Shown one piece after another: positions 1 to 20,583 of a stretch of DNA of 64,000 nt (its first letter is position 1; each line of letters starts with the position of its first letter). Made by a program: the position numbers and the translations under genes. This stretch comes from Candidatus Dojkabacteria bacterium (GTDB taxonomy: Bacteria; Patescibacteriota; Dojkabacteria; SC72; JAHDCA01), in assembly GCA_030583845.1 (NCBI GenBank), contig CP129478.1:843686-907685 (forward strand), written 5' to 3'. A model generated the notes under the pieces. The model had not been told where the DNA came from and searched no databases. It was given only the letters and a program-made list of their open reading frames with translations.

Positions 1-798
1 GGCATTTTTGCTTGAATCGGTCTGTCGAATGCTTTTGCGGTTTTTATCTGCTCGAGCACGCTCTCATCTTTCTCAAAATGGGAGAGACACTCGTCGATGA
101 ACTGTAGCTCTCTTTCAAAATCCATGTTTCCGTATAGGACGATCTTGGCGTTTGTAGGATGATAATACTTTTTGTGGAATTTAATGAAATTTTCATATGT
201 GAGGTCGGGAATATTTTCTGGCTCACCGCCTGAGTTGTTGGCATATGTTGTACCAGGGAAGAGGGTTTTGTTCACCGCTTTGTCGACTACACTGTCCACA
301 TTTGACATGCCTCCCTTCATTTCATTAAATACAACACCTTTGTAGATCAGCTCGTTTTTATCATTAAATTCATAATGCCAGCCCTCCTGTTTTAATGTCT
401 CTTCGGTGATAAGTGGGTGGAATACCGCGTCCATATAAACCGAGATAAGATTGTGCAAGTCCTCATCATTTTCGCTTGAAACTGGGTAAAGCGTTTTGTC
501 CGGAAAAGTCCAAGCATTAATGTAGGTATTTAATGAAGTCCTAGCCATCTGGATAAATGGATCTTTTACGGGGTATTTCTCCGAGCCACCTAAAACTGAG
601 TGCTCAAGAATATGCGCAACTCCAGTGGAATCTTGCGGTATCGTTCTGAAATTGATCGAGAATAGTTTATTGGTGTCATCGTTTTTCAGCAGCAGGATCT
701 GTGCGCCTGTCTTCTTATGCTCGAGTAGTGTACTCTTAAGCCCAACTTCTTTTACCTCTTCAGTCTTTAGGATAGTGTAATGTTCATTATCTTTCATT
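1..798 (-). CDS. M16-family (insulinase-like) zinc peptidase, N-terminal part (gene continues beyond window start)
   Basis: Translation from ATG (complement of 796-798) reads MKDNEHYTILK... and contains the inverted zinc motif HILEH (HxxEH) typical of M16 peptidases. ORF runs off the window edge so it is absent from the ORF track. Confidence 0.65.
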
Positions 799-1105
799 AA
801 AAAGGTATTTTTAGTTTAGCTGTCTTAATTGGGCACTCCCTATTTTATCAGATAATAAAGGCAGATTTTGCTGCATGATGTCCTGTAGTAGTAATTTGTA
901 AGCTTTGTGTAAGTAGTTGCACCCACCGCCGATATATTTATTAGATAGCACCCAACCTGATCCCTTTGGGTGCTTTTCTTTTATAGAGGTTGTTGGTTAT
1001 AAGATGCTCATGTATTGGAGTTTTCGCTTCGTTTAATGTTGCCTCAGAATTCTTAATGTCAAAATTTCCTGAAAAGTACGCTTTGAAAGCGCACTTTTGT
1101 TATCC

Positions 1106-1129
1106 GCTCAGACCCGAACGGGTCTGAGC
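1106..1129. promoter_or_regulatory. perfect 24-bp palindrome GCTCAGACCCGAACGGGTCTGAGC in divergent intergenic region (copy 1 of 2)
   Basis: Seen directly. A near-identical palindrome recurs at 19041-19068. Both lie between divergently transcribed genes, so a candidate operator or hairpin element. Confidence 0.5.
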
Positions 1130-1185
1130 ACTTCAAGGCTGACCTGCGGTATAATAGAGATGGATAAATTTTCATTATTCGGGGG

Positions 1186-1470
1186 ATGACAAGATCAACA
1201 GCACAAAGATATGCGAATATTTTTCAGTCCTTAACAGAGGCTGAGTCTCTTGTAATGTTGGATTATCTGAGGCAAAAGGGTGGAGAAGTTACGCTGAAAG
1301 AGCTTGCAGATGAGGCAAACACTTCTGAATCACGGGCTCGTGGACTCCTTGAAGAGCTAGAGCAGGTGTACCTGGTTAATGAAAATCGTGAGAATGGCGA
1401 AACAACCTACTACTATGAGTCAACGACAGTGGCAGATAGGTTGAGATATATCTTGGATCGCATGGAGTAA
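1186..1470 (+). CDS. small winged-helix DNA-binding protein (MarR/ArsR/TrmB-like), putative transcriptional regulator
   Basis: 94 aa with a helix-turn-helix-like segment VTLKELADEANTSESRARGLLEELEQ. A TATAAT-like -10 (ggtataat) sits ~35 nt upstream. Family assignment is weak. Confidence 0.4.
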   Translation: MTRSTAQRYANIFQSLTEAESLVMLDYLRQKGGEVTLKELADEANTSESRARGLLEELEQVYLVNENRENGETTYYYESTTVADRLRYILDRME

Positions 1471-1509
1471 GCCTAGTTTTGAGCTCAAATCAATTTTTAC
1501 ACTGACGCC

Positions 1510-2316
1510 ATGGACAGCCTTGTACTAGATAAAGTGGTATCTTCAGTTCTCTCATCAAAAAAATATCGTTACCTCTATGAGCCCACAATCAGGCGCACTG
1601 TTGAGGAGCTCGCAACACGCTATCCTGAGAAAAAGCTTGATAATGAAACTCGCAAGAGGCTCCACCAGCTGTGGGGCGCCTACATTAAGCGACCGAATTT
1701 CATGAAAGTTTTAGAGCAGGTAGAGGCCGACATAACCTCCGGAGCTGAGGCGAAGGATGTTTTGCTACCACTTCTGAGGCTGCAAACATCTACCGAAGAG
1801 CGAATCCCAGTAGTTAATGAAATCTATCTTAAAATAGCCGAGAGCATTGACGCCAAGATAGAGAGTATCGTTGAGTATGGGGCAGGAATGAACGCACTTA
1901 CATATCCTTGGATGCAGGAGGCATTCGGGCAAAGTGTTAAATACACAGGAGTTGACGTTGATAGTGAGCTGGCAGATTTTCAGAACAGAATTTTCATGAA
2001 ATTAGGCCTAGAGGAGCGTGCGAAGGCGATTCAAGGTGATATTTTGTGCGACGAGCTGCTTGAGGCTGATGTTGTTTTCCTGTTTAAGTTGTTGCCGCTT
2101 TTGGAGCATCAGGTAAAAGGTAGCGGTGGAGAGATTTTAAAACAGCTAAAGGCGAAGTATATAGTGGTGACCTTTCCAACTAAGTCGATTGGCGGAAAAG
2201 AGAAGGGGATGGTCGATAATTATCGGACGCTTATCTCAGCTGTCACATCGGGGGAAGAGTGGGCTGTAGAAGAGGTATTAATGGAGAGTGAAGTCTTGTT
2301 CGTCATTTCCAAATAA
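1510..2316 (+). CDS. 16S rRNA (guanine1405-N7)-methyltransferase, ArmA/RmtB (FmrO) family homologue
   Basis: Shares the family's characteristic blocks, for example SSKKYRYL...RKRLHQLWGAYI...STEER...VVFLFKLLPLLEHQ...TFPTKSIGGKEKGMVDNY...VLFVISK, and is of similar length. Confidence 0.7.
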   Translation: MDSLVLDKVVSSVLSSKKYRYLYEPTIRRTVEELATRYPEKKLDNETRKRLHQLWGAYIKRPNFMKVLEQVEADITSGAEAKDVLLPLLRLQTSTEERIPVVNEIYLKIAESIDAKIESIVEYGAGMNALTYPWMQEAFGQSVKYTGVDVDSELADFQNRIFMKLGLEERAKAIQGDILCDELLEADVVFLFKLLPLLEHQVKGSGGEILKQLKAKYIVVTFPTKSIGGKEKGMVDNYRTLISAVTSGEEWAVEEVLMESEVLFVISK

Positions 2317-2346
2317 CGACGGTGGTGGTCACCTACTGACAGTATT

Positions 2347-3279
2347 TTGGCAGATCTGCGATATACTCGCATGAAACCTGGGAAACAACAAACGCCGCTA
2401 TGGAGAGGTGACACTGGATATCTTACGAGACAGGAGACTGAAGACCCTAATGGGTGCCTTGGCTCGCCGTTTGAATTTATAACAAAAGCTGACTCACGAG
2501 AGGCTGGAGCAGCGAGAAGGGTGCTCATTGCTGAGCTTCTGAATATTACTGATGAAATTGCACATCCTTTGACAGGCAAGCTTTCTCCTGGTACTCATGC
2601 AGCTGTGGCACGGAGGGAATTCATACTACAGGCAGCAATTGGCTTAGGGCTTCTCACAGAAAGGGAAGGGCAAGCATTAGTCAACCCGTATATATTGGAT
2701 GACGAGGTGATTGATATTTATGAACCACATCGAGAGAAGTGGGATATGGAACGTTTTGTTAGGCGTAGCATGTACGAGCGTTCACAGTCACGGAAGGTTG
2801 GCCTGCTACTTTTCTATAAGCAACAATATATATCGACGCTGGAGGCATTTTTATGCCGTCAAGCAGCAATGTCTTGTGGGTACTTAATATGTGCAACTGT
2901 GAGCGATAGCTCACTTGGGAAGGTGTTGAGGATGCATCCAAAAACAACTGAGGAATACAGACTCGCAACGCTGAGCCAGATACCGTACACAGAAAATACG
3001 GTAATATCATTTGAAGGCAATATATTTGACGGGTCACTTCAAAGACAGATAATGGAGCTTGGAGTAGATCACCTTTTCTTGCCGACAGCAAATATAATGC
3101 AGGTAAGGGATTATTTTGCAGGATTCAGAGTGTCTGTTCGGCCAGGTGCTCCAACAGAAAATCCTGGTTATTTGGATCCTACAAATATTTTTGCTAGCTA
3201 TTCTGGTGGATTACTCAAGAATTGGAGATTTAGACAGCTTCCTGAATCTACGACAAAACCGTTCAAAAAGGTTGGATAA
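2347..3279 (+). CDS. hypothetical protein, 310 aa, possibly translationally coupled to the upstream methyltransferase
   Basis: Long ORF 31 nt downstream of the Rmt-like gene. No motif recognised. Confidence 0.4.
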   Translation: MADLRYTRMKPGKQQTPLWRGDTGYLTRQETEDPNGCLGSPFEFITKADSREAGAARRVLIAELLNITDEIAHPLTGKLSPGTHAAVARREFILQAAIGLGLLTEREGQALVNPYILDDEVIDIYEPHREKWDMERFVRRSMYERSQSRKVGLLLFYKQQYISTLEAFLCRQAAMSCGYLICATVSDSSLGKVLRMHPKTTEEYRLATLSQIPYTENTVISFEGNIFDGSLQRQIMELGVDHLFLPTANIMQVRDYFAGFRVSVRPGAPTENPGYLDPTNIFASYSGGLLKNWRFRQLPESTTKPFKKVG

Positions 3280-3281
3280 GC

Positions 3282-4016
3282 TTACTCAATTTCATAACTC
3301 ACCTTCGTACTCCCACCCTTACACTTCACCTTCGTCACCCTCAAACCCACAAGCTCACTAATATTCTTCACATGTGGCGCTCCACAAGGCATGAATAGAT
3401 CATCCCAAACAGCCACAATCCTGATCGGCTTACCTTCTGGCAGAGCAGACGGAGTCACATAGCATAAATTTGGCAGCTCATTCGCATTCGCCATCCTGGT
3501 TTTAACCTCATAACCGCTTGCAATCATTTTATCAAGCTCCTCCTGTAGCTTCACCTTCACAGCCTCACGCTCTTCAGGCTCTATCGTCCCTTCGTACTCA
3601 ACACTCGCACCCTCAGGAAAGTGAAACCCTTTGGTTGGCCTAAAGTGGGCATAACCCACGTTTCGCATTGCAATATCGATGAGATGTCCTGCGCTTTGCA
3701 GCTTGTTAATAATCAATCTGCGCTGCTCATCTACCAGCAGATTAACCTGCTCGCCCACAGTGAAGCTTCCGGAGCTGTATTTCCCGATATGGTGTACCAA
3801 CCCATCTTTGAATCTCACCTCCTCTACATCGAATTTGCCATTGTCAGAGCTGATCCATCCCTGGTCATATGGTGAGCCGCCACCCTGAGGGTAGAATACT
3901 GTATGATCGAGGAAAAGTAGGTCTCTACCATCCTCACTCTTATCCATGCCAATAATCTTGGCCTTTTGCTGCAACAGATATGAATCTTCCATGTAGAGTA
4001 GGGTGGTTGGGGACAT
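3282..4016 (-). CDS. AlaX-like alanyl-tRNA editing (tRNA_SAD) domain protein
   Basis: N-terminal LDHTVFYPQGGGSPYDQG block and a CxxxH motif (CGAPHV) typical of AlaRS/ThrRS editing domains. The HxxxH motif appears as QSAGH, partly degenerate. Confidence 0.5.
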   Translation of the reverse strand: MSPTTLLYMEDSYLLQQKAKIIGMDKSEDGRDLLFLDHTVFYPQGGGSPYDQGWISSDNGKFDVEEVRFKDGLVHHIGKYSSGSFTVGEQVNLLVDEQRRLIINKLQSAGHLIDIAMRNVGYAHFRPTKGFHFPEGASVEYEGTIEPEEREAVKVKLQEELDKMIASGYEVKTRMANANELPNLCYVTPSALPEGKPIRIVAVWDDLFMPCGAPHVKNISELVGLRVTKVKCKGGSTKVSYEIE

Positions 4017-4033
4017 TATGGTAATTCTCTAGG

Positions 4034-5320
4034 TTATCTTGTGATTATATCACGGTCAGCTTCTTCCTTTGCTTTCAGCCGACTTAGTAATAATGTCGTC
4101 AGTGGCACCAGTAACAGCACTGCTGCTATACCAAGTGCACTCCACACAAAACGATTGCTATATTCATCCTGGAATGGCCCACTAATAAACAACACTGCCA
4201 TATATACACCGCTCACAAGCAGATTCAGTCCAGACATCGCAGTTGCCCTATATTTAGACTCAAGCTCCTCGTTTACGTAGTTATCAAGTAGCGCCCTTTG
4301 CATCGCACTCGTGAGATTTAGACCAAAAATTAAGAAATACACCACCAATTTGCTCGCATAGTAGCCGGGAACGAGCGACACAATAAGTATTGCCGCCATC
4401 GATACATAGAGAAGTTTTTTGTTCATAATCTTGCTCTCATTTCGTGTCAAAAAGAGCACGACAAGTGTGCTAATCAAGTATAGCGAAGCAAAAACCCAGC
4501 TCTGCTCCTTTTCAGTGTATCCCGAATCTTTTGCAAATGTATTTACGAAATAGTCCTGGCAGACCCAGATTATTCCAACCACGACTGTGTAGTATGCTGT
4601 AAGGCTTTTCAAGTATGGAGTTCTCAGCAGATGTATGAATCCCTTTTTGGCTTGGCGGGTATAATTCTTTAATGTGAATTTGTAGCTCTCGACATCTGGC
4701 TCAATCAAGAAGACCGACACAATGGCCATAACCATGTAAGCCAAGCCCCGCAAGATGAATGGTAGTCCCTCAAAATATTGATACAAATAGCCTCCGCTAA
4801 GTACGGCAGCGACCATGAGGGCCCGCCTCACCAAAGAGCTTTTGGCCACAATGCCTGGGAACTTCTTCTCGTCTCCGCACTCTTTTAATGAATCATACAG
4901 CAGTGCCTTATCCGCACCAGATACGAATGCATTCCCGGCTGCCTCCCCAAGCCAGGCGACATAGAACATCCAAGGTGCAAAAGAGAACCCTAGAAAGATT
5001 CGGAAGACTCCTATTAGTACCTGTCCAATGATGATAGTTCTCTTCCTGCCGATGAGGTCGGCTAACGCACCAGTTGGCAGCTCAAGAATAAGCGTAACGA
5101 AGTATGAAAGTCCGGCAATAAAGGCAAGCTGAGAGTAATCGAGATACTGCTGGTGGAATGCAACCCATACTGGGATGGTGAAGAGGAGTCCGCTTAACGC
5201 GTTGCTGATGTAGTAGACGGTGACGTTTCGTTTTAATCCGGTTGTGTGGTCCATTTGTTGTATGGTCGGGATAGCGGAGTATAGCAATAAATGTGTCTTT
5301 GAAATAGTCGTTTCGAACAA
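4034..5320 (-). CDS. MFS (major facilitator superfamily) transporter
   Basis: About 12 predicted hydrophobic helices and an MFS-like GRKRTIIIG loop motif. The true start is probably the internal Met (MDHTTGLKR, ~5254). Confidence 0.7.
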   Translation of the reverse strand: MFETTISKTHLLLYSAIPTIQQMDHTTGLKRNVTVYYISNALSGLLFTIPVWVAFHQQYLDYSQLAFIAGLSYFVTLILELPTGALADLIGRKRTIIIGQVLIGVFRIFLGFSFAPWMFYVAWLGEAAGNAFVSGADKALLYDSLKECGDEKKFPGIVAKSSLVRRALMVAAVLSGGYLYQYFEGLPFILRGLAYMVMAIVSVFLIEPDVESYKFTLKNYTRQAKKGFIHLLRTPYLKSLTAYYTVVVGIIWVCQDYFVNTFAKDSGYTEKEQSWVFASLYLISTLVVLFLTRNESKIMNKKLLYVSMAAILIVSLVPGYYASKLVVYFLIFGLNLTSAMQRALLDNYVNEELESKYRATAMSGLNLLVSGVYMAVLFISGPFQDEYSNRFVWSALGIAAVLLLVPLTTLLLSRLKAKEEADRDIITR

Positions 5321-5353
5321 TTCGGGAAATTTGTTTTCTATTTTGAAGCGAAA

Positions 5354-5629
5354 CTAGTAGGTGATATCTAGTTTCTTCTTCAACTCTCTAACCTTTCTCT
5401 GTTTTCTAACATTCTTTTGAACTACATATAGCGAAAAAACTATACCAAAAAGCCCTCCTAACAGTATCAAGATATCTTTAAGCTGGTTTGAAGTAACATA
5501 GGAGTTAACCAGGTAGATACCAATCATTACCGCTGTGTTTACCTGGATTGCTTCTGTAGCCAGGATGTTTTTGCTTCTTTGGAGAGTAGCTATCTGAATA
5601 TTTATTTTTTCAAGCTCTTCTTGGCTCAT
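5354..5629 (-). CDS. small membrane protein, hypothetical
   Basis: 91 aa with one or two hydrophobic helices and a basic C-terminus. Confidence 0.35.
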   Translation of the reverse strand: MSQEELEKINIQIATLQRSKNILATEAIQVNTAVMIGIYLVNSYVTSNQLKDILILLGGLFGIVFSLYVVQKNVRKQRKVRELKKKLDITY

Positions 5630-5663
5630 AACAGATTGTACTATACTGGTGGCAATGTTAGAA

Positions 5664-6134
5664 CTAATAGGTTTCAGACCCTACGGCTAAAGCAAGCTTC
5701 TCTTTCATATCGCCAAGATGCTCCGCTTCTAAGTGCCAGATGTCGTCTGTGAGAAATTTTAAGGGTGTAAGATCTCGTCCTTCCCAGATCGGTTTATCCC
5801 ACAACTCCACGGGGAATGTGCGATAGGTTTGCAGTAGCTGTTTACTGAGCTGTACAAACTCATTGTAGACCTTATCCCAAGTCCAATCCTTGCGAGCGCT
5901 AATGCCTTCCAGGTTAAATTGGTCTATATCCGGATGCCAGAAAGGCTCGGTTCCGTCTTTTAGTGAGTCCAAGCATTCCAGATCATGCTCCATCCAGTGG
6001 TTGAGGTGCGAGACAATGTCTTTAAGACTCCATTTATCGAATATAAGGGTCTCTCGTTGTTCGCGGGGGAATTGGTCAATTACATCCAAAATTTGATCTC
6101 TTACGGCCTCAAATTTTTCGATGTTGTCTTGCAT
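5664..6134 (-). CDS. ClbS/DfsB (DUF1706) family four-helix-bundle protein
   Basis: Pattern KWSLKDIVSHLNHWME resembles the DUF1706/ClbS signature (WSVKDxLAHLxxWE). 156 aa. Confidence 0.4.
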   Translation of the reverse strand: MQDNIEKFEAVRDQILDVIDQFPREQRETLIFDKWSLKDIVSHLNHWMEHDLECLDSLKDGTEPFWHPDIDQFNLEGISARKDWTWDKVYNEFVQLSKQLLQTYRTFPVELWDKPIWEGRDLTPLKFLTDDIWHLEAEHLGDMKEKLALAVGSETY

Positions 6135-6162
6135 TCCGGTTCAATATTTATGAGGGTGTCAT

Positions 6163-6549
6163 TGGCTCTGCGGGAAGGATTCGAACCTTCAACCCACTGG
6201 TTACACGTACTCCTCATATTTCTATGAGGCGTGGACTATCTCATCGCCATTGCTATTAGCATTAGGCGCAAGGCACTTCCCACACGTAGTAAAACTACGA
6301 GCAGTACGAGCATCGCTCTAGTCTCTGAACCTTCCCTTTCAGTTGCCTGAAGTTGGGCTAGGCTGCGGATTTCCATTACCTCTTATCATGTCTACCGTCG
6401 AGTAGACGAGGGTTAGGGTTCCCGCAATTCACCTTGTTATACATCTAGCGCTTTCGCGCTAAAGCTGCCGTAAACCTGCGTGGATTTCTCTCAAAACCCA
6501 CACACGTGTTAATGAACAGCCAGTTGCTCTACCATTGAGCTACCGCAGA
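6163..6549 (-). tRNA. tRNA (most likely Asn-GUU; Thr-UGU alternative) interrupted by a group I intron in the anticodon loop
   Basis: 5' exon TCTGCGGTAGCTCAATGGTAGAGCAACTGGCTGTT and 3' exon AACCAGTGGGTTGAAGGTTCGAATCCTTCCCGCAGAGCCA fold into a full cloverleaf with a 7-bp acceptor, D-arm, anticodon stem ACTGG/CCAGT, T-arm GAAGG-TTCGAAT-CCTTC and encoded CCA. U1-A72 and discriminator G73 favour Asn. Confidence 0.7.
6203..6514 (-). ncRNA. group I self-splicing intron (IC3-like), ~312 nt, no ORF
   Basis: Group I core elements in RNA sense: P-like AAUUGCGGGAA, Q-like AAUCCGCAGCC, R/P7 GGUUCAGAGACUAGA and S/P7' GAGAUAGUCC. Exact splice junctions are ambiguous by a few nt (after U33 or after U35/U36). 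Confidence 0.65.
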
Positions 6550-6719
6550 ATAATGAACAGGACATTATACTTTCACAGGTTAAAATGTGCAACAAGCCCG
6601 CTAAAACAGCACTACCTTGGCACTCCATCTAAAATTTGGCGACCTTAATATGGGCTTTAAAGATCACCCTGTATAAAGTAAAATAGTTAAACCAATCTAA
6701 TATATTTCTTACATCAGTA

Positions 6720-7301
6720 ATGTTCAGAAAATACCTAGCCGCCCTTTTTGTGACAGCGTTTGTAGCACTATTTAGCGTTACTACTGTTTTCGCACAAGAT
6801 ACAGAAGAAACACTTGACGTTGAGACGACCGATGAAAGTGCTGCAACTGAAGTCGAGAACGGTGGATTGCCAGAGCAGACCTTCCTTATCTACGTACATG
6901 AAGATTGCCCTCACTGCCAGAGAGTTGAAGCATTTGTTGAAGAGCAGGGGATACAGGACCAGGTAGAATATGTGGAGCTAAAGAATAACCAGGAGAATAT
7001 GGATGCGCTTCAAGCTGAATGGGAGAAATTTAATGTGCCTACAAGTGATCAAGGATGGCCGTTTATGGTTTATGAAGATGAGAACGGTGATGAGACCTAC
7101 GCGACCGGTGACGAGCCAATTATCCAGATCTTGAGCCAGTACAACGGTATCCCATACACAGCTCCTGATAATGGAGAGGATACTACTACATCTGATTCGC
7201 CTAGTGGTGGGTTGGGTGACAGCGTATTCCTAGTGTTAGGAGGAGTTGTACTGATGTTCATCGTCGGCTACGGAGTGTATTCAGCTGCTAGCAAGAAATA
7301 G
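6720..7301 (+). CDS. secreted or membrane-anchored thioredoxin-fold protein (CPHC active site)
   Basis: N-terminal signal peptide, an acidic linker, a CPHC redox motif and a C-terminal hydrophobic anchor. Confidence 0.5.
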   Translation: MFRKYLAALFVTAFVALFSVTTVFAQDTEETLDVETTDESAATEVENGGLPEQTFLIYVHEDCPHCQRVEAFVEEQGIQDQVEYVELKNNQENMDALQAEWEKFNVPTSDQGWPFMVYEDENGDETYATGDEPIIQILSQYNGIPYTAPDNGEDTTTSDSPSGGLGDSVFLVLGGVVLMFIVGYGVYSAASKK

Positions 7302-7374: not shown

Positions 7375-8199
7375 GTGTTAAACATGTATATGGAAAGAAC
7401 ACGTTTTGCGGCCGTTGCAGGACAATTTTACCCTTTGGATCCGGCCGAACTTGAGGGCTCAATAGCAGATATGCTCGACCCTTCAGCTGAAGATATCATT
7501 GATAGCCGGAGATTCAAGGCATTTATACTTCCACACTCCAGCTATAAGCAGTGTGGCGTGGTGATGGGTGCAGGATATGCCAAGCTGCTTGAAAGAGAGA
7601 TAGATGAGGTATTTGTGATGTCAGGCACACATTTCCATCAAGCAGAAGGCGTCATAATGTCTGACTTTAGCAGGTGGGAGACGCCTTTGGGCTATGTTGA
7701 GGAATCACATAGGCGGAATCAGATCGCCGGCTCGGATGATTCAGCGGCTCAAAACCTTATACAGCAAGACAATGATCCATTCGACGGCGAGCATGCAATC
7801 GAGGTGCATCTTCCTGTGCTGCAGTATCTGTGGGGTGAAGAGTTTAGATTCTTACCACTGATTATTGGCAAGGGTAGCCCGAGGCTTGCAGCAAATAGCT
7901 TGGTCAAATTTATTGACCCTGATGATTTGATCATATGCAGCAGCGAGCTTTCGCACGGATATCCAGCAGACTACGCTAAGGATATAGACAAGCGAGCGAT
8001 TGATTCGATACTGAAGCTCGATGTCGATGCTATCTTGCACGACTCATTTAAGGCGTTCTCTATAAATTCAATAGCCACTCTCGTCGAGATTGCTAGGCTG
8101 AAAGTATGGAAAGCGGAGCTATTGATGTATAAAAACTCATCTGAGTTTGTCAAAAATGACAGCAAAACCTCCGGCTATGTTGCGATTGGCTTCTACTGA
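7375..8199 (+). CDS. Memo-like protein (AmmeMemoRadiSam system protein B, MEMO1 family)
   Basis: AVAGQFYP near the N-terminus and the EHAIEVHLPVLQY metal-binding motif of the Memo family. Likely start at the MERTRF Met (~7390). Confidence 0.7.
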   Translation: MLNMYMERTRFAAVAGQFYPLDPAELEGSIADMLDPSAEDIIDSRRFKAFILPHSSYKQCGVVMGAGYAKLLEREIDEVFVMSGTHFHQAEGVIMSDFSRWETPLGYVEESHRRNQIAGSDDSAAQNLIQQDNDPFDGEHAIEVHLPVLQYLWGEEFRFLPLIIGKGSPRLAANSLVKFIDPDDLIICSSELSHGYPADYAKDIDKRAIDSILKLDVDAILHDSFKAFSINSIATLVEIARLKVWKAELLMYKNSSEFVKNDSKTSGYVAIGFY

Positions 8200-8233: not shown

Positions 8234-9127
8234 ATGGTTAAGAAATCTCGATATTACAAGAATGCTGAAGGTGGCGAAATAATTTCGCTGGTTGACCCAT
8301 TTAATGAAATTGTTAAAGATGGCGAGGTCGATTCATCGGGTGTGAGACTTAATCAGGGCGGAAAGTTAATGCAGCTCAACTATGGGCAGATTGTGCTGAT
8401 AAAGAAATTAAAGCTTCGTGAATTTCTCATTAACCACCATGATGAAGAGTGTATAGCCGTAACCATGATAGGAAACAATCTTCGCATTACCTATGACCAG
8501 CAGTGGGGCACGTCGCAATATGCCACTGTAGCGCAACAGGAATGGGGTAGGGCAGCTGCAAATAAGAAAGTCGCATCAATTGGCAGCTACTACTCACCAG
8601 AAGCGCTAGTCGAGTACGCTCATGCATCCAACGTTCGCAATATCTTCTTTATGGGGTTTGAACCCACAAGCTGTTGGGACTATGTCTCGGATGTCTCAGA
8701 AGTAGCTAAAGATAAGGAATTAAAAGTTGGAGTGATCACGCATGGCTATTTCTCGGAAATGGTCTGCAGGGAAATGACCACACAGCTCAGTTATATTGTG
8801 TATCAGCTCGACTCGCTCCAATCCTTTTTCATGAAAAAGCATCTTAAAGCCAACCTAGAAATCATAACATCGAACATAGAGCGTAGCTTCAAGTCAATCG
8901 CTCATCTAGAGCTCTCAACCTATTTTATTCCTGGAGAAAATGACACCATGCATGATATAAAGCTCTTCATAAAAGTCATTAAATCACTGGACAAGAAGGT
9001 GTCGTGGCAGCTTAGGCGATTCTTGCCAGAGTACCGCGTGCTGGATAAGCCTGTCACGTCGGATGAAAAACTTCGTCAGATATGTGAAGCAGCTCGTGCC
9101 GAGGGAATTGATGTTAAGGTAGTGTAA
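8234..9127 (+). CDS. AmmeMemoRadiSam-type (PflA-like) radical-SAM homologue lacking the CxxxCxxC cysteines (putative pseudoenzyme)
   Basis: Family-like blocks SRYYKNAEGG (ARYYEKLEDG), FMGFEPT (FTYNEPT) and a PFL-AE-like C-terminus RRFLPEYRVLDKPVTS...EGIDVKVV. The cluster motif GCNLRCxYCQNW reads GNNLRITYDQQW, so all three Cys are absent. Confidence 0.55.
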   Translation: MVKKSRYYKNAEGGEIISLVDPFNEIVKDGEVDSSGVRLNQGGKLMQLNYGQIVLIKKLKLREFLINHHDEECIAVTMIGNNLRITYDQQWGTSQYATVAQQEWGRAAANKKVASIGSYYSPEALVEYAHASNVRNIFFMGFEPTSCWDYVSDVSEVAKDKELKVGVITHGYFSEMVCREMTTQLSYIVYQLDSLQSFFMKKHLKANLEIITSNIERSFKSIAHLELSTYFIPGENDTMHDIKLFIKVIKSLDKKVSWQLRRFLPEYRVLDKPVTSDEKLRQICEAARAEGIDVKVV

Positions 9128-9202: not shown

Positions 9203-9616
9203 ATGGACGATCGCATCAAGATTACATTTAACAATATGGAGCCGTCGGACGCCCTCAAAGAGTACCTAAATGAGAAGATATTAAAGCATAAGAGTGAGCA
9301 TCTCTTAGAGAAAATGACCATGGCAGAAGTGCATCTGACCGAGAATGTGCATGCAAAGGGTGTTGATAAGGACTTTCAGCTAGATATCAATGTTGATGTC
9401 CCTGGAAATAGAGTCCATGTAGAAGCAGCTGGAAGCGACATGTATGCGTTAGTTGATGAGGCAACGGATAAGCTTTTCAGAGTGTTGCAGAAAAATAACG
9501 ATAAACAGAAGAAGAGTGAAGGCTCGACACCTTGGAGGGTGTTAGAAGCAGAAGCAGCTGCAGAAGCGATGAAGGCTGATGTTGACGACGATGATGAATA
9601 TGCTGGTGTCGAATAG
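9203..9616 (+). CDS. hpf: ribosome hibernation promoting factor (HPF/RaiA, S30EA family)
   Basis: IKITFNNMEPSDALKEYLNEKI...HVEAAGSDMYALVDEATDKLFRVLQK matches the HPF/YfiA fold. Acidic C-terminal tail. Confidence 0.75.
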   Translation: MDDRIKITFNNMEPSDALKEYLNEKILKHKSEHLLEKMTMAEVHLTENVHAKGVDKDFQLDINVDVPGNRVHVEAAGSDMYALVDEATDKLFRVLQKNNDKQKKSEGSTPWRVLEAEAAAEAMKADVDDDDEYAGVE

Positions 9617-12101: not shown

Positions 12102-13043
12102 TTATTTCTCTTTTAGCTTAAGATACTTGGCCGTAGCAATGTAGCTGCTTATGAAACCAATGATCCCACCTATCAAAATCAGTATACCATAGAAAATTAA
12201 GACGAATATAAGGTTAAACTGCCCTAGCCCTTGGAGAGAGAGGTAACTCAACGTATCTGTGATGACGAAATAAAAGTTGCTTCCCTCAGCCGTGTACATA
12301 AAGAGATACCACGGAATGATGATAAGGGAGGCTGCTATAAATGCGCCTACAACAGTCGCAAATACACCCTCTAAAATAAATGGAGTCTTCACATATGAGT
12401 CTGAGCTTCCCACAAGGTGCATGATCTGAATCTCGCTCTTATGAGCAGTGATATTGAATGAGACTGTGATAATCACCAGCGCAAGTGTGATAAATGTAAA
12501 CAACCCAATTACGGCGAGTCCACCCACTGTGATTGCCTTAGAGATCATTTTGAGCTGGTTTACGACATCTTCATGATAAAGAACATCGTCAATATAAGGG
12601 TTTGTTTTGCTTTCTTCTTTGATTACCGCTGTAATATTGTCCAAGTCGGTTAATGTCTCTGCCCGCACAGTGAGGCTGGCTGGAAGCCACTCTGAGTCAA
12701 CACCCTCTGTCAGATCCTCTTCCTCTGAATAGTAGCTGATATAGTACTTGAGAGCCTTCTGCTGATCGATATACTCAATCTTTTCGATCTGTCCTGCGCT
12801 TTTGACAAGCTCCTCGACGGCAAAGATTTCTGATTCGGGAGCGTCTAATACAAAATAGATCTGCATCTGAGCCTCTTTCTCGGTCACATCCACTGCTCTT
12901 CGTGCAAGTAGCGCAGCAATGGTGAAGATTGCTGCACTGGCAAAGACAATTGTAGTAACAAGAATTGTGGCCATCGAGAGCCATTTATTTCTTAGGATAT
13001 TGTTCTTTGTATTCTTAAATGTAGTAGAGAGTTTGTTCGACAT
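12102..13043 (-). CDS. ftsX: cell division permease-like protein FtsX
   Basis: N-terminal TM, a periplasmic loop domain and three C-terminal TM helices. Sits directly after ftsE. Confidence 0.8.
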   Translation of the reverse strand: MSNKLSTTFKNTKNNILRNKWLSMATILVTTIVFASAAIFTIAALLARRAVDVTEKEAQMQIYFVLDAPESEIFAVEELVKSAGQIEKIEYIDQQKALKYYISYYSEEEDLTEGVDSEWLPASLTVRAETLTDLDNITAVIKEESKTNPYIDDVLYHEDVVNQLKMISKAITVGGLAVIGLFTFITLALVIITVSFNITAHKSEIQIMHLVGSSDSYVKTPFILEGVFATVVGAFIAASLIIIPWYLFMYTAEGSNFYFVITDTLSYLSLQGLGQFNLIFVLIFYGILILIGGIIGFISSYIATAKYLKLKEK

Positions 13044-16738: not shown

Positions 16739-18301
16739 TTGAGACATATGAGTAAAAAATTAATAGACTTTTCACAGATTAAGCAAAGATATAATGACCG
16801 CGAGCTTTATTTCGACGTAGCCGGCAAGGTTTTTAACGCGGAAAAGATAGGGCTAATCGGAATAAACGGATCAGGAAAAAGCACTTTGATGCGCATACTG
16901 ATGAGGGAAACTAAGCCTGATTCAGGCAATTTGCTTACAGATTACAGTAATTACGGCTATGTGCCACAAGAGATTGAAGGAGAGATCTTGAATCAGGGTC
17001 TATTTCAATTTTGCATGAGCCTCACCAATGTCGCCTCTCAGTATATGTTCTTACTTGATCACGAGGTTCAGAAAAAGTTCGACGAGAACTATGTCGAGGC
17101 ATTGCACCTATTCGATAGTGTTGGCGGCTACGAGGTTATGAAAAAGGTTACCCTGCTGCTTGATATTGTTGGCTTTAACGAAGGTTGGTACGAGCATTCT
17201 GTAAGCGCCTTGTCTGAAGGGCAGAAAAGGCTGCTCTATATGGTGGGAATAATGGCACAGGAGCCCGAGCTTCTTTTCTTAGACGAGCCAACAAACCATG
17301 TCGACTCGGAGCTGAAGCAGAAATACATTTCATTAATTAGTAAGTTTCCTAACTGTGTGCTGGTGATCTCTCACGACCGTGAGCTACTTAGTGCCGCATG
17401 TAGCAAAATCTGGGAATTGGAAGATAAGGTGTTGCAGGTATACAACGGCAATTGGGAATTTTATGAAGAGGAGCATACACGCCGTTTGATTAATCAGGTG
17501 ACACGATATCGCAAAGACCAGAAAGAGGTTGATCGTCTGCAGGAATTGGTCGATACCTACAAGAGGAAAGCTTCTCTGTATGATAGCCCGAAATGGAAGA
17601 AGAAAATTCGCAGCGTGCAGATCCGCATGGAAAGAATAGAGACAGAAATGCCAGGTATCAAGCCGACTCTAGAAAAGGCTCGCATCGGTGGGGAGCTAAA
17701 ATATGAAGGCAAGTACTCGCAGTTCCCATTAAAAATTAATGATCTCACCTTGATGACGAAAGAGCGGATCTTGTTCGAGCATCTGAATCTGGATGTGAGG
17801 TATGGCGAGACTGTCGCAATTACTGGAAAAAACGGAGCAGGGAAGTCTACTCTGATGAAATATGTTGTCGGCGAGTGTGACTATGTTGAAGCAGAAGGCT
17901 CTGTCACCGTAACACCAGCGTCGGTTGTTGGCTACTTTAATCAGACACTGCAGTTCGAAAATGAGAATGTATATCTCGGTGACTATATTGAGCGTGAATT
18001 TGAAGCTGGCATAAGCCGCATATATGGTCTACTTGAAAAATACCTATTCGAGCGCGAGCAGGCCAAGACTTTAATCGCAAATCTTTCTGGCGGTGAGAAA
18101 AATAGGCTGCATTTAATGAAATTTATAGAGGGGAACTATAACCTCTTGCTTTTGGATGAGCCAACAAACCACCTAGATCTGTACGCGATCGAGGCCTTGG
18201 AAAGGCTGTTGCTGCAATTTAATGGGTCGATTGTGTTGATTTCGCACGATGCTTATTTTGTGGATAATGTGGCTGATAGGAGTGTGAGGATAGGGGAATA
18301 G
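16739..18301 (+). CDS. ABC-F family ATPase (tandem ABC domains, no TMD; EttA/ARE-like)
   Basis: Two Walker A motifs (GINGSGKST, GKNGAGKST) and two ABC signatures (LSEGQKRL, LSGGEKNR) joined by a linker, with no membrane domain. Start may be the second Met (MSKKL). Confidence 0.8.
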   Translation: MRHMSKKLIDFSQIKQRYNDRELYFDVAGKVFNAEKIGLIGINGSGKSTLMRILMRETKPDSGNLLTDYSNYGYVPQEIEGEILNQGLFQFCMSLTNVASQYMFLLDHEVQKKFDENYVEALHLFDSVGGYEVMKKVTLLLDIVGFNEGWYEHSVSALSEGQKRLLYMVGIMAQEPELLFLDEPTNHVDSELKQKYISLISKFPNCVLVISHDRELLSAACSKIWELEDKVLQVYNGNWEFYEEEHTRRLINQVTRYRKDQKEVDRLQELVDTYKRKASLYDSPKWKKKIRSVQIRMERIETEMPGIKPTLEKARIGGELKYEGKYSQFPLKINDLTLMTKERILFEHLNLDVRYGETVAITGKNGAGKSTLMKYVVGECDYVEAEGSVTVTPASVVGYFNQTLQFENENVYLGDYIEREFEAGISRIYGLLEKYLFEREQAKTLIANLSGGEKNRLHLMKFIEGNYNLLLLDEPTNHLDLYAIEALERLLLQFNGSIVLISHDAYFVDNVADRSVRIGE

Positions 18302-19040: not shown

Positions 19041-19068
19041 TTGCTCAGACCCGATCGGGTCTGAGCAA
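19041..19068. promoter_or_regulatory. perfect 28-bp palindrome TTGCTCAGACCCGATCGGGTCTGAGCAA (copy 2 of the GCTCAGACCCG element)
   Basis: Seen directly, in the divergent region between ung (-) and the FkbM methyltransferase (+). Shares the 11-bp arm GCTCAGACCCG with 1106-1129. Confidence 0.5.
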
Positions 19069-19096: not shown

Positions 19097-19798
19097 ATGC
19101 CATCGACCAAGTTAGGAAAGTTAATAATCAGTTACATTAACTCGCGCGAGTTCCATTCGATCAAGAACGAGATTTTTAATACCCAGATATATGCGACCAA
19201 ACTTCAAAGTGAAACGCCTATCATACTAGACATTGGTGCACATATTGGGTTGGCGACTCTTTATTTTAAGCAGCAGTGGCCAGGGGGTACAGTTTTTGCT
19301 TTTGAGCCGAATCCTGTGGCATTCAAGCTGCTTGAGGAGAATATTTGGCAGAACGGTTTGCAAAATGTTGAGGCATACAATATTGCAATCGCTGGCAGCG
19401 ACGGGAAAAGAAAGCTGTATATCCCTGCAAATGATGTATCTTGGGACTCAAACTCAAGCTTTACAAATGGATCTTGGAGCAAGCAGGAGGCGCAGCAGCC
19501 AGTTGAGATTGAAGCAAGAAGACTTGCAAAGATTCTAGAGAAGCTGGATAAAGTTGATCTGCTCAAAATAGATGTGGAGGGGGCAGAGTTTGAAATTTTC
19601 AAAGATATTCAGAAAAATTTAATGAAAATTAATGAAATGATTATTGAGATACATCCCGAGTCGAGACAGAGATTTAAAGAGATGACTGCTCGACTGCTAG
19701 CAGACGATTTCACGATTGAGATTTGGCAAAACGGAAAAATTGTCCGACAGCCCGACTTTAGCAAGCTTTTCATAATGAAAGCTCGTCAAAGTGCTTAG
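19097..19798 (+). CDS. FkbM-family methyltransferase
   Basis: ILDIGAHIGLATLYF SAM-binding block and the LLKIDVEGAEFEIF motif typical of the FkbM domain. Confidence 0.7.
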   Translation: MPSTKLGKLIISYINSREFHSIKNEIFNTQIYATKLQSETPIILDIGAHIGLATLYFKQQWPGGTVFAFEPNPVAFKLLEENIWQNGLQNVEAYNIAIAGSDGKRKLYIPANDVSWDSNSSFTNGSWSKQEAQQPVEIEARRLAKILEKLDKVDLLKIDVEGAEFEIFKDIQKNLMKINEMIIEIHPESRQRFKEMTARLLADDFTIEIWQNGKIVRQPDFSKLFIMKARQSA

Positions 19799-20583
19799 AG
19801 CTGGGTAATAAGCAGGTAGCCAATTAGCAATGCTCCGAGTGCAATTCTGTACCAACCGAAAAATGTGAGGAACTTCTTCTTGCTGACATATTTTAGTAGC
19901 AGTACAGCAAGGAGACTGACTACAAAGGCTAAAGCCACAGTTACAAATCCATTCATATTCAAAAAAGGCTTGAAGTCCTCAAAATCAGTAGCTACTGTAA
20001 AAAAGAAAGACCCTGCGATTATCGGAATTCCGACAATAAAAGCATATTCGAGGGCAATATCCTTGCGCATACCTCGCCATACCCCTGCAAGCGTCATTAC
20101 CCCAGAACGAGAAGTTCCAGGCAACAAAGCCAAAGTCTGGAATAAGCCTATAACCAGCGCATCAATCGCTCGCAATTCTGAAATATCATTAAACTTCTGT
20201 ACTGGTCTTCGATCGTGCAGTCGCTCAGTTACAATCAGAGCTACGCCCCACAAGATAAGCATCGCTGCTACAAAAGGTAAATTGTAGAAATACTCATCCA
20301 AGATCTCACCGATTAGAATTCCTAGCATGACAGCAGGGATACAGCTGATCACTATATTTAGCAGCACCCTCCATCTGAAGCTATTTTTAATGATTTTCAT
20401 TAACTCAGGCCAGTAGCCAACGACAATTCCGCCAAGCGTAGCGATATGCAGCAGCGTTAATAAGGCGACAGTTGCCTCGACTTTCAAGATCTCGCTAAAA
20501 ATTATCAAATGTCCGGAGCTAGAGATTGGCAGCAATTCTGATACTCCTTGGACTACAGCCAAGATATACAGGTTAATATCCAT
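19795..20583 (-). CDS. uppP: undecaprenyl-diphosphatase (BacA/UppP)
   Basis: GVSELLPISSSGHL and other UppP motifs with ~8 TM helices. Confidence 0.85.
   Translation of the reverse strand: MDINLYILAVVQGVSELLPISSSGHLIIFSEILKVEATVALLTLLHIATLGGIVVGYWPELMKIIKNSFRWRVLLNIVISCIPAVMLGILIGEILDEYFYNLPFVAAMLILWGVALIVTERLHDRRPVQKFNDISELRAIDALVIGLFQTLALLPGTSRSGVMTLAGVWRGMRKDIALEYAFIVGIPIIAGSFFFTVATDFEDFKPFLNMNGFVTVALAFVVSLLAVLLLKYVSKKKFLTFFGWYRIALGALLIGYLLITQL

Follow-up and report, generated by a model that had tools for sequence, protein, structure and literature searches.

Does a gene for an aminoglycoside-resistance type of rRNA methyltransferase, found on a bacterial chromosome, mark a resistance island acquired from elsewhere, or does it belong to the organism's own set of rRNA-modifying enzymes? 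This question is raised by a 64,000-nucleotide stretch of a Candidatus Dojkabacteria chromosome (the window, in what follows), in which the open reading frame (ORF) at 1510-2316 resembles the ArmA/Rmt/FmrO family, enzymes that methylate N7 of G1405 in 16S rRNA (m7G1405). A sequence-only reading had described this ORF, here called rmt, as a chromosomal member of the family and had placed it, together with a major facilitator superfamily (MFS) transporter gene, in an island-like block (1186-6134) between a divergent promoter region and an intron-bearing tRNA gene. The comparisons reported here uphold the family membership by sequence, fold and functional residues, and do not uphold the island. 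It is considered probable that rmt encodes a native, vertically inherited methyltransferase of the ribosomal decoding centre, which has lost its tgt partner and for which aminoglycoside insensitivity would be a likely by-product.

Sequence and fold of the Rmt-like protein

The 268-residue product is identical to QY318_03890, a 'hypothetical protein' at NCBI encoded on a 1,036,382-bp contig of Candidatus Dojkabacteria bacterium, a member of the Candidate Phyla Radiation (CPR)/Patescibacteria whose genome measures ~1 Mb. All of the motifs by which the family had first been recognised lie within the ORF (SSKKYRYLY, RLHQLWGAY, TSTEER, VVFLFKLLPLLEHQ, FPTKSIGGKEKGMVDNY and LFVISK), and the ArmA strings that had been set beside them agree with ArmA as read from plasmid pD90-1. 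The Pfam profile of the FmrO family, PF07091, matches the protein over its full length (E 4e-34; 118.6 bits against a cut-off of 27; profile positions 2-253 of 255), as does the generic Rmt model of NCBIfam, NF000466 (E 5.8e-60; 202.8 bits). A sequence search of the PDB ranked RmtC first (9e-42), followed by Sgm (9e-31), RmtB (~1e-21), RmtF (4e-21) and ArmA (3e-17), and identities to the plasmid-borne enzymes, measured by tblastn, were 35% for RmtC, 31% for RmtF, 28.9% for RmtB and 28.5% for ArmA.

An AlphaFold2 model built from a 37-sequence alignment (predicted local distance difference test score, pLDDT, 94.6; predicted template modelling score, pTM, 0.91) comprises two N-terminal helical subdomains, N1 and N2, and a C-terminal class I S-adenosylmethionine (SAM) methyltransferase fold. 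In Foldseek comparisons the model superposed on RmtC, Sgm, RmtB and RmtF with full-length template modelling (TM) scores of 0.78-0.90, the values being 0.83-0.87 for RmtC and 0.88-0.90 for Sgm, the latter with a root-mean-square deviation of 2.0. ArmA superposes too, and every methyltransferase from outside the family scored below 0.52.

The structure of RmtC on the 30S subunit, obtained by cryo-electron microscopy, identified residues essential for docking onto helices h45, h24, h27 and h44, for the distortion of h44 and for the positioning of G1405 (PMC10288597). Mapping of these residues onto the window protein through a MAFFT alignment found K18, Y19, R48, H52 and Y58 kept (K20, Y21, R50, H54 and Y60 of RmtC), together with K193, K225 and M234 (K204, K236 and M245) and K230, a lysine for R241; R37, K41 and N237 are likewise conserved. 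With high confidence, sequence and model identify the protein as a structurally intact FmrO/Rmt-family enzyme, from which activity at G1405 would be expected.

Conservation of the locus

The composition of rmt and its surroundings is native. The GC content of the block is 0.43-0.46, against 0.40-0.50 in the window, and rmt itself has a GC content of 0.454 and a GC content at third codon positions (GC3) of 0.489, the median being 0.473. The codon-usage distance is 0.115 for both rmt and the MFS gene, a deviation that ranks 53rd of 61 ORFs and places them among the most typical. The sole low-GC3 gene of the block (0.371, under the 5th percentile of the window) encodes the orphan 310-aa protein directly downstream of rmt. 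No integrase or recombinase gene was found in 1-6700, and direct repeats of the tRNA 3' end (the tRNA exon), sought as possible island borders, do not flank the block.

One close relative was available for comparison of gene order, the Logan contig L003; between its Rmt and the window protein the identity is 63%. The order in L003 is an MFS-gene fragment, PreP on the minus strand, a Y1_Tnp (IS200-like) transposase gene on the minus strand, a winged helix-turn-helix (wHTH) regulator gene, tgt, rmt and a homologue of the orphan gene, followed by the group I intron and tRNA on the minus strand and by Grx-like, Memo, radical-SAM and HPF genes. The wHTH, rmt and orphan genes occupy one and the same chromosomal site in the window and in L003, from PreP to tRNA-Asn and Grx-Memo-radical SAM-HPF, and the flanking proteins are 52-73% identical. 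Three differences stand out: the tgt gene of L003 is absent from the window locus, its Y1 transposase gene is absent too, and the segment 3282-6134 of the window, which encodes the AlaX-like, MFS, 91-aa and DinB-like proteins, is absent from L003.

Part of this neighbourhood is shared over a longer distance. In a Dojkabacteria metagenome-assembled genome (MAG; L021) whose Rmt-like protein is 34% identical, HPF lies directly upstream of the Rmt-like gene, and radical-SAM and Grx homologues lie 2-3 kb downstream. Neighbour-joining places the window protein together with those of L003 and of a further Dojkabacteria locus (L008), and the three are nested in a CPR clade made up of sequences from Saccharibacteria, Paceibacteria and Staskawiczbacteria. 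Given the native composition, the synteny at the same site and the position in a CPR clade, the rmt unit is best read as old and native, and only a 2.9-kb minus-strand segment beside the tRNA as variable between the two lineages. That segment is best read as an independent, lineage-specific indel beside tRNA-Asn and not as part of the rmt unit; the tie between rmt and the MFS gene that the first reading had implied is not supported.

Operons of tgt, rsmI and rmt

The gene that L003 carries between wHTH and rmt is informative about the ancestry of the family. Tgt inserts queuosine at the tRNA wobble base (G34 to Q), RsmI is the 2'-O-methyltransferase of C1402 and RsmH also acts at C1402. The L003 TGT scores above the cut-off of the Tgt equivalog model (TIGR00430; 312.7 bits against 306.75), and its ORF shares 8 nt with that of rmt.

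With each GTDB species represented by one genome, a pattern scan found 76 loci with an Rmt-like gene, which span CPR, Chloroflexota, Latescibacterota, Ignavibacteria, Aminicenantes/Acidobacteriota, Nitrospiraceae, Spirochaetota, Bacteroidota, Actinomycetota and others; the FmrO family is rare but diverse, with 1,243 clusters at 50% identity and E<=1e-3 among 1.84 billion. Of the 76 loci, 60 have a bacterial tgt on the same strand at a distance of up to 3 kb, and in 50 it is the gene directly upstream. Among the 16 loci without tgt, about six are truncated contigs and the remainder are mostly CPR. Measured from the tgt stop, a possible rmt start falls between -20 and +30 nt in 37 of the 43 pairs evaluated, 21 of which have an overlapping stop and start. 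More than half of the loci (40/76) also contain an RsmI gene, mostly in the order rsmI-tgt-rmt (TIGR00096, 212.8 bits against a cut-off of 167.9); rsmH occurs in four and QueE-like genes in ten. In a single 628-aa ORF (P0259), TGT and FmrO domains, both complete, are joined (PF01702, E 1.9e-87; PF07091, E 4.2e-44). It lies at 4280-6887 of locus L091 (GCA_048633415.1, JAIWCF010000160.1), its start overlapped by an upstream gene of the rsmI type (TP_methylase), and may be either a genuine fusion or the product of a frameshift in sequencing.

On this evidence, coupling to tgt and rsmI would be the ancestral state of the Rmt-like family, from which the lineage of the window has probably departed by the loss of tgt. 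The 64 kb of the window hold no tgt, so that rmt is not adjacent to one there, and none of the best 120 TGT relatives (at least 51% identity) came from the 1.036-Mb source contig. These two observations, together with the spacer of only 39 nt between the wHTH gene and rmt, are the reason for proposing the loss, and the sequence comparison is suggestive of a deletion of tgt from between these two genes in this lineage.

Other arrangements of the family were also seen. Eight loci (L028, L037, L043, L044, L047, L060, L067 and L071) contain two FmrO-family paralogues within 5 kb, one from a deeply divergent clade and the other directly downstream of tgt, in Cyclobacteriaceae, Spirochaetales, Aminicenantes and Ignavibacteria. 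The Vut_1/YhhQ-type family has been linked to uptake of queuosine precursors; in a Paceibacteria MAG (JBFEPE010000017.1; L004/L005, 1498-3031) an Rmt-like gene with no adjoining tgt is divergent from a gene for a Vut_1/VUPS (YhhQ-type) transporter. A full-length FmrO-family protein with 29% identity to that of the window (E 5e-13) is encoded by a Woesearchaeota archaeon of the DPANN group (JW711_01510; P0038). An archaeal enzyme of this type is hard to square with aminoglycoside defence and may reflect transfer from one episymbiont to another or a housekeeping role.

Relation to clinical and producer enzymes

The plasmid-borne 16S rRNA methyltransferases defeat nearly all clinical aminoglycosides. 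When the L003 TGT was compared with plasmids, its best matches were plasmid tgt genes of Klebsiella, Enterobacter, Providencia and E. coli (41-50% identical), whereas the native enterobacterial tgt is only ~33% identical. Each of these plasmid tgt genes lies directly upstream of an rmt gene and beside transposases of the IS91/ISCR type, in the modules tgt-phosphoesterase-rmtB2, tgt-rmtD2, rsmH-tgt-rmtG (with an 8-nt overlap, on pKP13f) and truncated tgt-rmtE2. Both members of the plasmid pair are closest to one set of unclassified MAGs (L033, L040, L058, L062 and L077), with identities of 33-41% (rmt) and 50-58% (tgt). Such a pattern fits capture of the tgt-rmt pair onto plasmids as a unit, although the direct donors are not in the MAG set, given that the identities are no higher than this.

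Two parts of this pattern had been described before: a 'tRNA ribosyltransferase' upstream of rmtG (PMC3904158), and rmtG as a member of an operon with rsmH, tgt and rsmL (PMC9311965). In the literature that was searchable, the neighbour is mentioned case by case, for rmtG and rmtD, and an account of a linkage of rmt with tgt and rsmI across phyla was not found there; the RmtE paper says nothing on origins.

The tgt-linked clinical modules share their pairing with the 60 environmental loci and with L003; the window differs from them in having no tgt and in a unit that opens with wHTH and closes with the 310-aa orphan. The best sequence and structural match to the window protein, RmtC of Proteus mirabilis (PDB 6PQB, 6CN0 and 8GHU; ~35% identity), shares with it N1, N2 and the Rossmann domain, but its N2 bears an insertion of about 11 residues that the window protein does not have, and its gene is plasmid-borne, mobilised by IS91/ISCR-type elements next to plasmid blaNDM, whereas the window gene is chromosomal and native. 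ArmA shares the family and the motif series but is more distant than RmtC, and armA on the plasmid examined adjoins ISCR1 and IS26 with no annotated tgt alongside. The producer enzymes Sgm, GrmA, KgmB and FmrO belong to the same family, and Sgm gives the best superposition. Their genes, which confer self-resistance, sit in the aminoglycoside biosynthetic clusters of actinomycetes, and a survey of ORFs and Pfam domains found no biosynthetic genes near the window rmt. NpmA and KamB, which methylate A1408 (m1A1408), likewise act on helix 44 of 16S rRNA and confer aminoglycoside resistance, but they are of a different family and have a different target, and neither gave a significant match to the window protein in the PDB and NCBIfam searches at the thresholds used.

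Proposed role and alternatives

By homology to RmtC, the N-terminal helical subdomains of the window protein would bind the assembled 30S subunit, helix 44 would be pried open and G1405 flipped out, and a methyl group would be passed from SAM to N7 to give m7G1405. The ancestral arrangement would have been an ancient operon of uncultivated phyla in which rmt was translationally coupled to tgt, often with rsmI or rsmH ahead, and the deletion of tgt would have left the compact wHTH-rmt-orphan unit. The enzyme is proposed to modify the organism's own ribosomes as part of the normal set of rRNA modifications, since each of its ancestral partners has the decoding centre (C1402) or the tRNA wobble base as its target, and insensitivity to 4,6-disubstituted deoxystreptamine aminoglycosides would be a built-in consequence. 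In this lineage rmt has been kept without tgt, and its function is therefore argued to be independent of queuosine. There is a functional rationale for the pairing: tgt and queuosine at position 34 (Q34) are needed for aminoglycoside tolerance in Vibrio cholerae (PMC11703503), and ArmA reportedly disturbs the endogenous methylation of h44 (PMC3923132).

Several points weigh against a native m7G1405 methyltransferase. The score of 202.8 bits is below the equivalog cut-off of 250, so that the NCBI rule does not name the protein automatically as Rmt. SAM motif I reads VEYGAGMNA where the consensus is xDxACGLNP, with E122 for D, A125 for C and A129 for P, and thus departs from a consensus that RmtB, ArmA and RmtF keep; the deviation is common to the L003 Rmt, and the acidic residue and G-x-G are kept. 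Two contact residues differ from RmtC (H200 for R211 and N45 for K47), and one of the four basic residues of the RmtC N2 set is kept; these differences outside motif I fall where the proven enzymes RmtB, ArmA and RmtF vary too. The neighbour-joining tree has no support values and uses the taxonomic labels of MAGs as recorded. The 16S rRNA gene, with the predicted target, lies outside the window. Methylation of G1405 by the window protein or its CPR homologues is a prediction from homology, what argues for a housekeeping role is operon context only, and we know of no native m7G1405 outside aminoglycoside producers and resistant strains. Finally, in a preprint of July 2026, CPR proteins annotated as 16S rRNA G1405 or A1408 methyltransferases gave no change in aminoglycoside minimum inhibitory concentration (MIC) when expressed in E. 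coli BL21; its authors argue that respiration-dependent aminoglycoside uptake is missing from CPR bacteria (10.64898/2026.07.13.738296). The MIC result is weak, because neither 'SDS' nor 'Western' turned up when the text was searched; given this result, resistance from CPR homologues nevertheless cannot be assumed.

It is possible that the gene is native but serves as a dedicated defence, under the control of the wHTH protein, against aminoglycosides of neighbours or hosts, and that linkage to tgt and rsmI elsewhere reflects tolerance and not housekeeping. The wHTH gene is conserved immediately upstream of the module in both lineages, a palindrome lies near the -35 position of its putative promoter, the Vibrio cholerae result ties tgt and Q34 to tolerance, and all characterised members of the family confer resistance. 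However, this is unlikely for four reasons: the palindrome also flanks the L003 transposase gene and precedes an unrelated FkbM gene, and may not be an operator; the wHTH gene is confined to this lineage; the same preprint argues against respiration-dependent uptake of aminoglycosides by CPR bacteria; and the tight coupling to constitutive rsmI, rsmH and tgt in many phyla resembles housekeeping.

A poorer case can be made for an enzyme that has the Rmt fold but another substrate, or one that it has lost, so that it would act on tRNA, on another rRNA nucleotide or in a queuosine-related role and would produce neither m7G1405 nor resistance. The genomic link to tgt, the TGT-FmrO ORF and the YhhQ/Vut_1-type gene beside the Paceibacteria homologue point in this direction, as do the negative MIC for a CPR homologue (10.64898/2026.07.13.738296), the score under the equivalog cut-off and the atypical motif I. 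Three observations make it quite improbable: the protein keeps the residues through which RmtC, in its structure on the 30S subunit, touches h45, h44 and N7 of G1405, the proven m7G1405 enzymes RmtB2, RmtD2, RmtE2 and RmtG have a tgt neighbour too, and the third member of the operon, RsmI, is itself a helix-44 (C1402) enzyme.

That 1186-6134 is a horizontally acquired resistance island at a tRNA gene, combining Rmt with MFS efflux for protection against antibiotics, is very improbable, and as far as the rmt core is concerned it is already largely refuted. In its favour, the block adjoins a tRNA gene, 3282-6134 is missing from L003, an IS200-like Y1_Tnp gene stands at the left border in L003 with a matching palindrome left at 1107-1128 of the window, and the orphan gene is low in GC3. 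Against it, GC content is flat and the codon usage of rmt and MFS typical, att-like repeats and an integrase are absent, synteny extends to L003 and in part to the 34%-identical Dojkabacteria MAG, the protein falls in a CPR clade, and the MFS protein fits no specific drug-efflux model (61.9 bits against 319.6).

Wider implications

The reading of rmt as a native decoding-centre enzyme invites a broader proposition, namely that Rmt-type enzymes are ancient housekeeping modifiers of the decoding centre (m7G1405) and not primarily resistance genes, that in many uncultivated phyla their genes share an operon with tgt, to which they are coupled in translation and now and then fused, mostly with rsmI or rsmH ahead, and that the clinical rmtB, rmtD, rmtE and rmtG are fragments of their operons captured by IS91/ISCR elements. 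This proposition is judged to be about as likely as not. If it is true, whole phyla, CPR included, would have ribosomes that are natively m7G1405-modified and insensitive to aminoglycosides, and the lineage of the window would show that rmt is retained even after the loss of tgt. If m7G1405 is normal in many lineages, the counting of 'resistance genes' in resistome surveys of CPR and MAGs would also change.

The locus and its relatives point to a source pool for the clinical genes, the chromosomal rsmI/rsmH-tgt-rmt operons of uncultivated environmental phyla, and the tgt remnant on plasmids would be a traceable marker of that origin. The suggestion of an environmental reservoir, made when the locus was first described, holds to the extent that the gene is part of a large environmental pool of Rmt-like genes. 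An Rmt-like gene in CPR is not new in itself, because earlier resistome surveys had flagged 16S rRNA methyltransferase-like matches in CPR genomes (PMC8651080). What is added is the conserved rsmI/rsmH-tgt-rmt operon: it connects the chromosomal genes of environmental bacteria with those on clinical plasmids, and it suggests that m7G1405 has a native role. The protein, at present a 'hypothetical protein', should be annotated as an Rmt-like rRNA methyltransferase and not as part of an acquired island.

Flanking elements and neighbouring genes

The features of the locus are collected in Table 1. The gene content of the block is as the sequence-only reading gave it, with the ClbS/DfsB-like protein at sub-threshold scores; the 91-aa membrane ORF is an addition.

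Table 1. Features of the rmt locus and its flanks, with positions in the window
Feature	Position	Strand	Basis and remarks
PreP-like M16 peptidase, N-terminal 265 codons	1..797	-	Runs off the window start; left conserved flank
Terminator-like hairpin, GCACCCAA...TTGGGTGC + T-run	948..983	+	PreP-wHTH spacer; read from sequence
Perfect palindrome, CTCAGACCCGAACGGGTCTGAG	1107..1128		CTCAGAC-N8-GTCTGAG
Small winged-helix regulator, IclR/ArsR-like HTH, 94 aa	1186..1470	+	PF09339 (HTH_IclR), 28.9 bits against cut-off 22; NF033788, E 1.3e-5
FmrO/Rmt-family 16S rRNA (guanine1405-N7) methyltransferase homologue, 268 aa	1510..2316	+	Pfam, NCBIfam, PDB, AlphaFold2, residues
Orphan protein, 310 aa (302 aa from the NCBI start)	2347..3279	+	Directly downstream of rmt
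AlaX-type alanyl-tRNA editing domain protein, 244 aa	3282..4016	-	NF040865 (AlaXM), E 7e-32; PF01411
MFS transporter, DHA3-like, generic, 428 aa	4034..5320	-	PF07690 (MFS_1), E 1.4e-24
Predicted membrane protein, 91 aa	5354..5629	-	Weak DUF4083 and LapA-like matches only
DinB/ClbS-superfamily-like protein, 156 aa	5664..6134	-	Sub-threshold matches only: DinB E 0.014, DUF1706 (ClbS) E 0.015, DinB_2 E 0.025, all below gathering scores
tRNA-Asn(GUU) split by a group I intron	6163..6549	-	Exons 6549-6516 and 6203-6163; right conserved flank

The divergent region to the left of the block is real, with the PreP-like gene transcribed leftward from 797: in a tblastn search the 961-aa PreP of locus L001 matched 797..3 at 100% identity over residues 1-265, and the same flank in L003 is 52% identical. 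The intron-bearing tRNA is equally real. A group I intron is recognised at 6212-6503 on the minus strand (Rfam RF00028, 70.8 bits), the intron being 312 nt long and interrupting the anticodon loop, where the insertion falls between U35 and U36 if the register is set so that the intron ends in G, and the spliced exons fold as tRNA-Asn(GUU) with U1-A72, G73 and CCA. ARAGORN overlooked this tRNA at default settings and, with introns allowed, proposed tRNA-Thr(UGU) in an alternative splice register; this was rejected because U1-A72 and G73 agree with tRNA-Asn, as known from the E. coli sequence. The intron and an identical 3' exon are kept in L003 (~12230-12640, minus strand). G34 of this tRNA-Asn is a TGT substrate, yet the window apparently has no tgt.

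The hairpin between PreP and wHTH has a homologue in the same intergenic position of L003 (~7668-7705). No gene is annotated ahead of the hairpin on that strand and Rfam has no match to it; it may be a small RNA or a bidirectional terminator. The palindrome precedes GCGGTATAAT by ~20 nt and the wHTH start by 58 nt. Another copy (19044-19065), with equal spacing to GCGGTATAAT, precedes a gene for an FkbM-family methyltransferase that is divergent from a UDG gene, and in L003 two palindromes (7725-7746 and 8469-8490) flank the Y1_Tnp gene, one of them 65 nt upstream of wHTH. The sequence could be a transcription-factor operator or an element of the repetitive extragenic palindrome (REP)/RAYT type, resembling an IS200 end; its reading as a specific operator of the wHTH protein is weakened because copies precede the unrelated FkbM gene and flank the L003 transposase, which leaves it between candidate operator and REP-like element. 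Scans for promoter and terminator consensus sequences found no more sites than in shuffled sequence.

The wHTH gene is the first of the wHTH-rmt-orphan unit, and its L003 homologue, in the equivalent position, is 68% identical. The orphan protein has no Pfam or NCBIfam match and found only itself among 5.8e9 proteins in a word-indexed search, its conservation being limited to the one close relative, where a homologue (38% identical) follows rmt. A single-sequence AlphaFold2 model was unusable (pLDDT 38). Because the spacer to rmt is only 30 nt, the evidence leans towards a lineage-specific accessory protein of the rmt transcription unit. The wHTH, orphan, AlaX and MFS proteins were considered as conserved partners of rmt in other phyla and rejected as such, with no homologues near the other 75 Rmt-like genes; wHTH and the orphan accompany rmt in the window/L003 lineage only. 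Database gene calls begin the MFS gene at 5254, which gives 406 aa, and its best specific model is TIGR00900, whose cut-off it misses by far.

Further along the window, the genes for ABC-F, UppP and HPF proteins, which had been judged to be probably housekeeping, encode, by family assignment, ordinary housekeeping families, and nothing marks them as acquired. The HPF homologue (9203-9598) is 65% identical to that of L003, the ABC-F type protein (16739-18301) has two ABC_tran domains and ABC_tran_Xtn, and the BacA/UppP protein (19795-20583) matches PF02673 with 205 bits.

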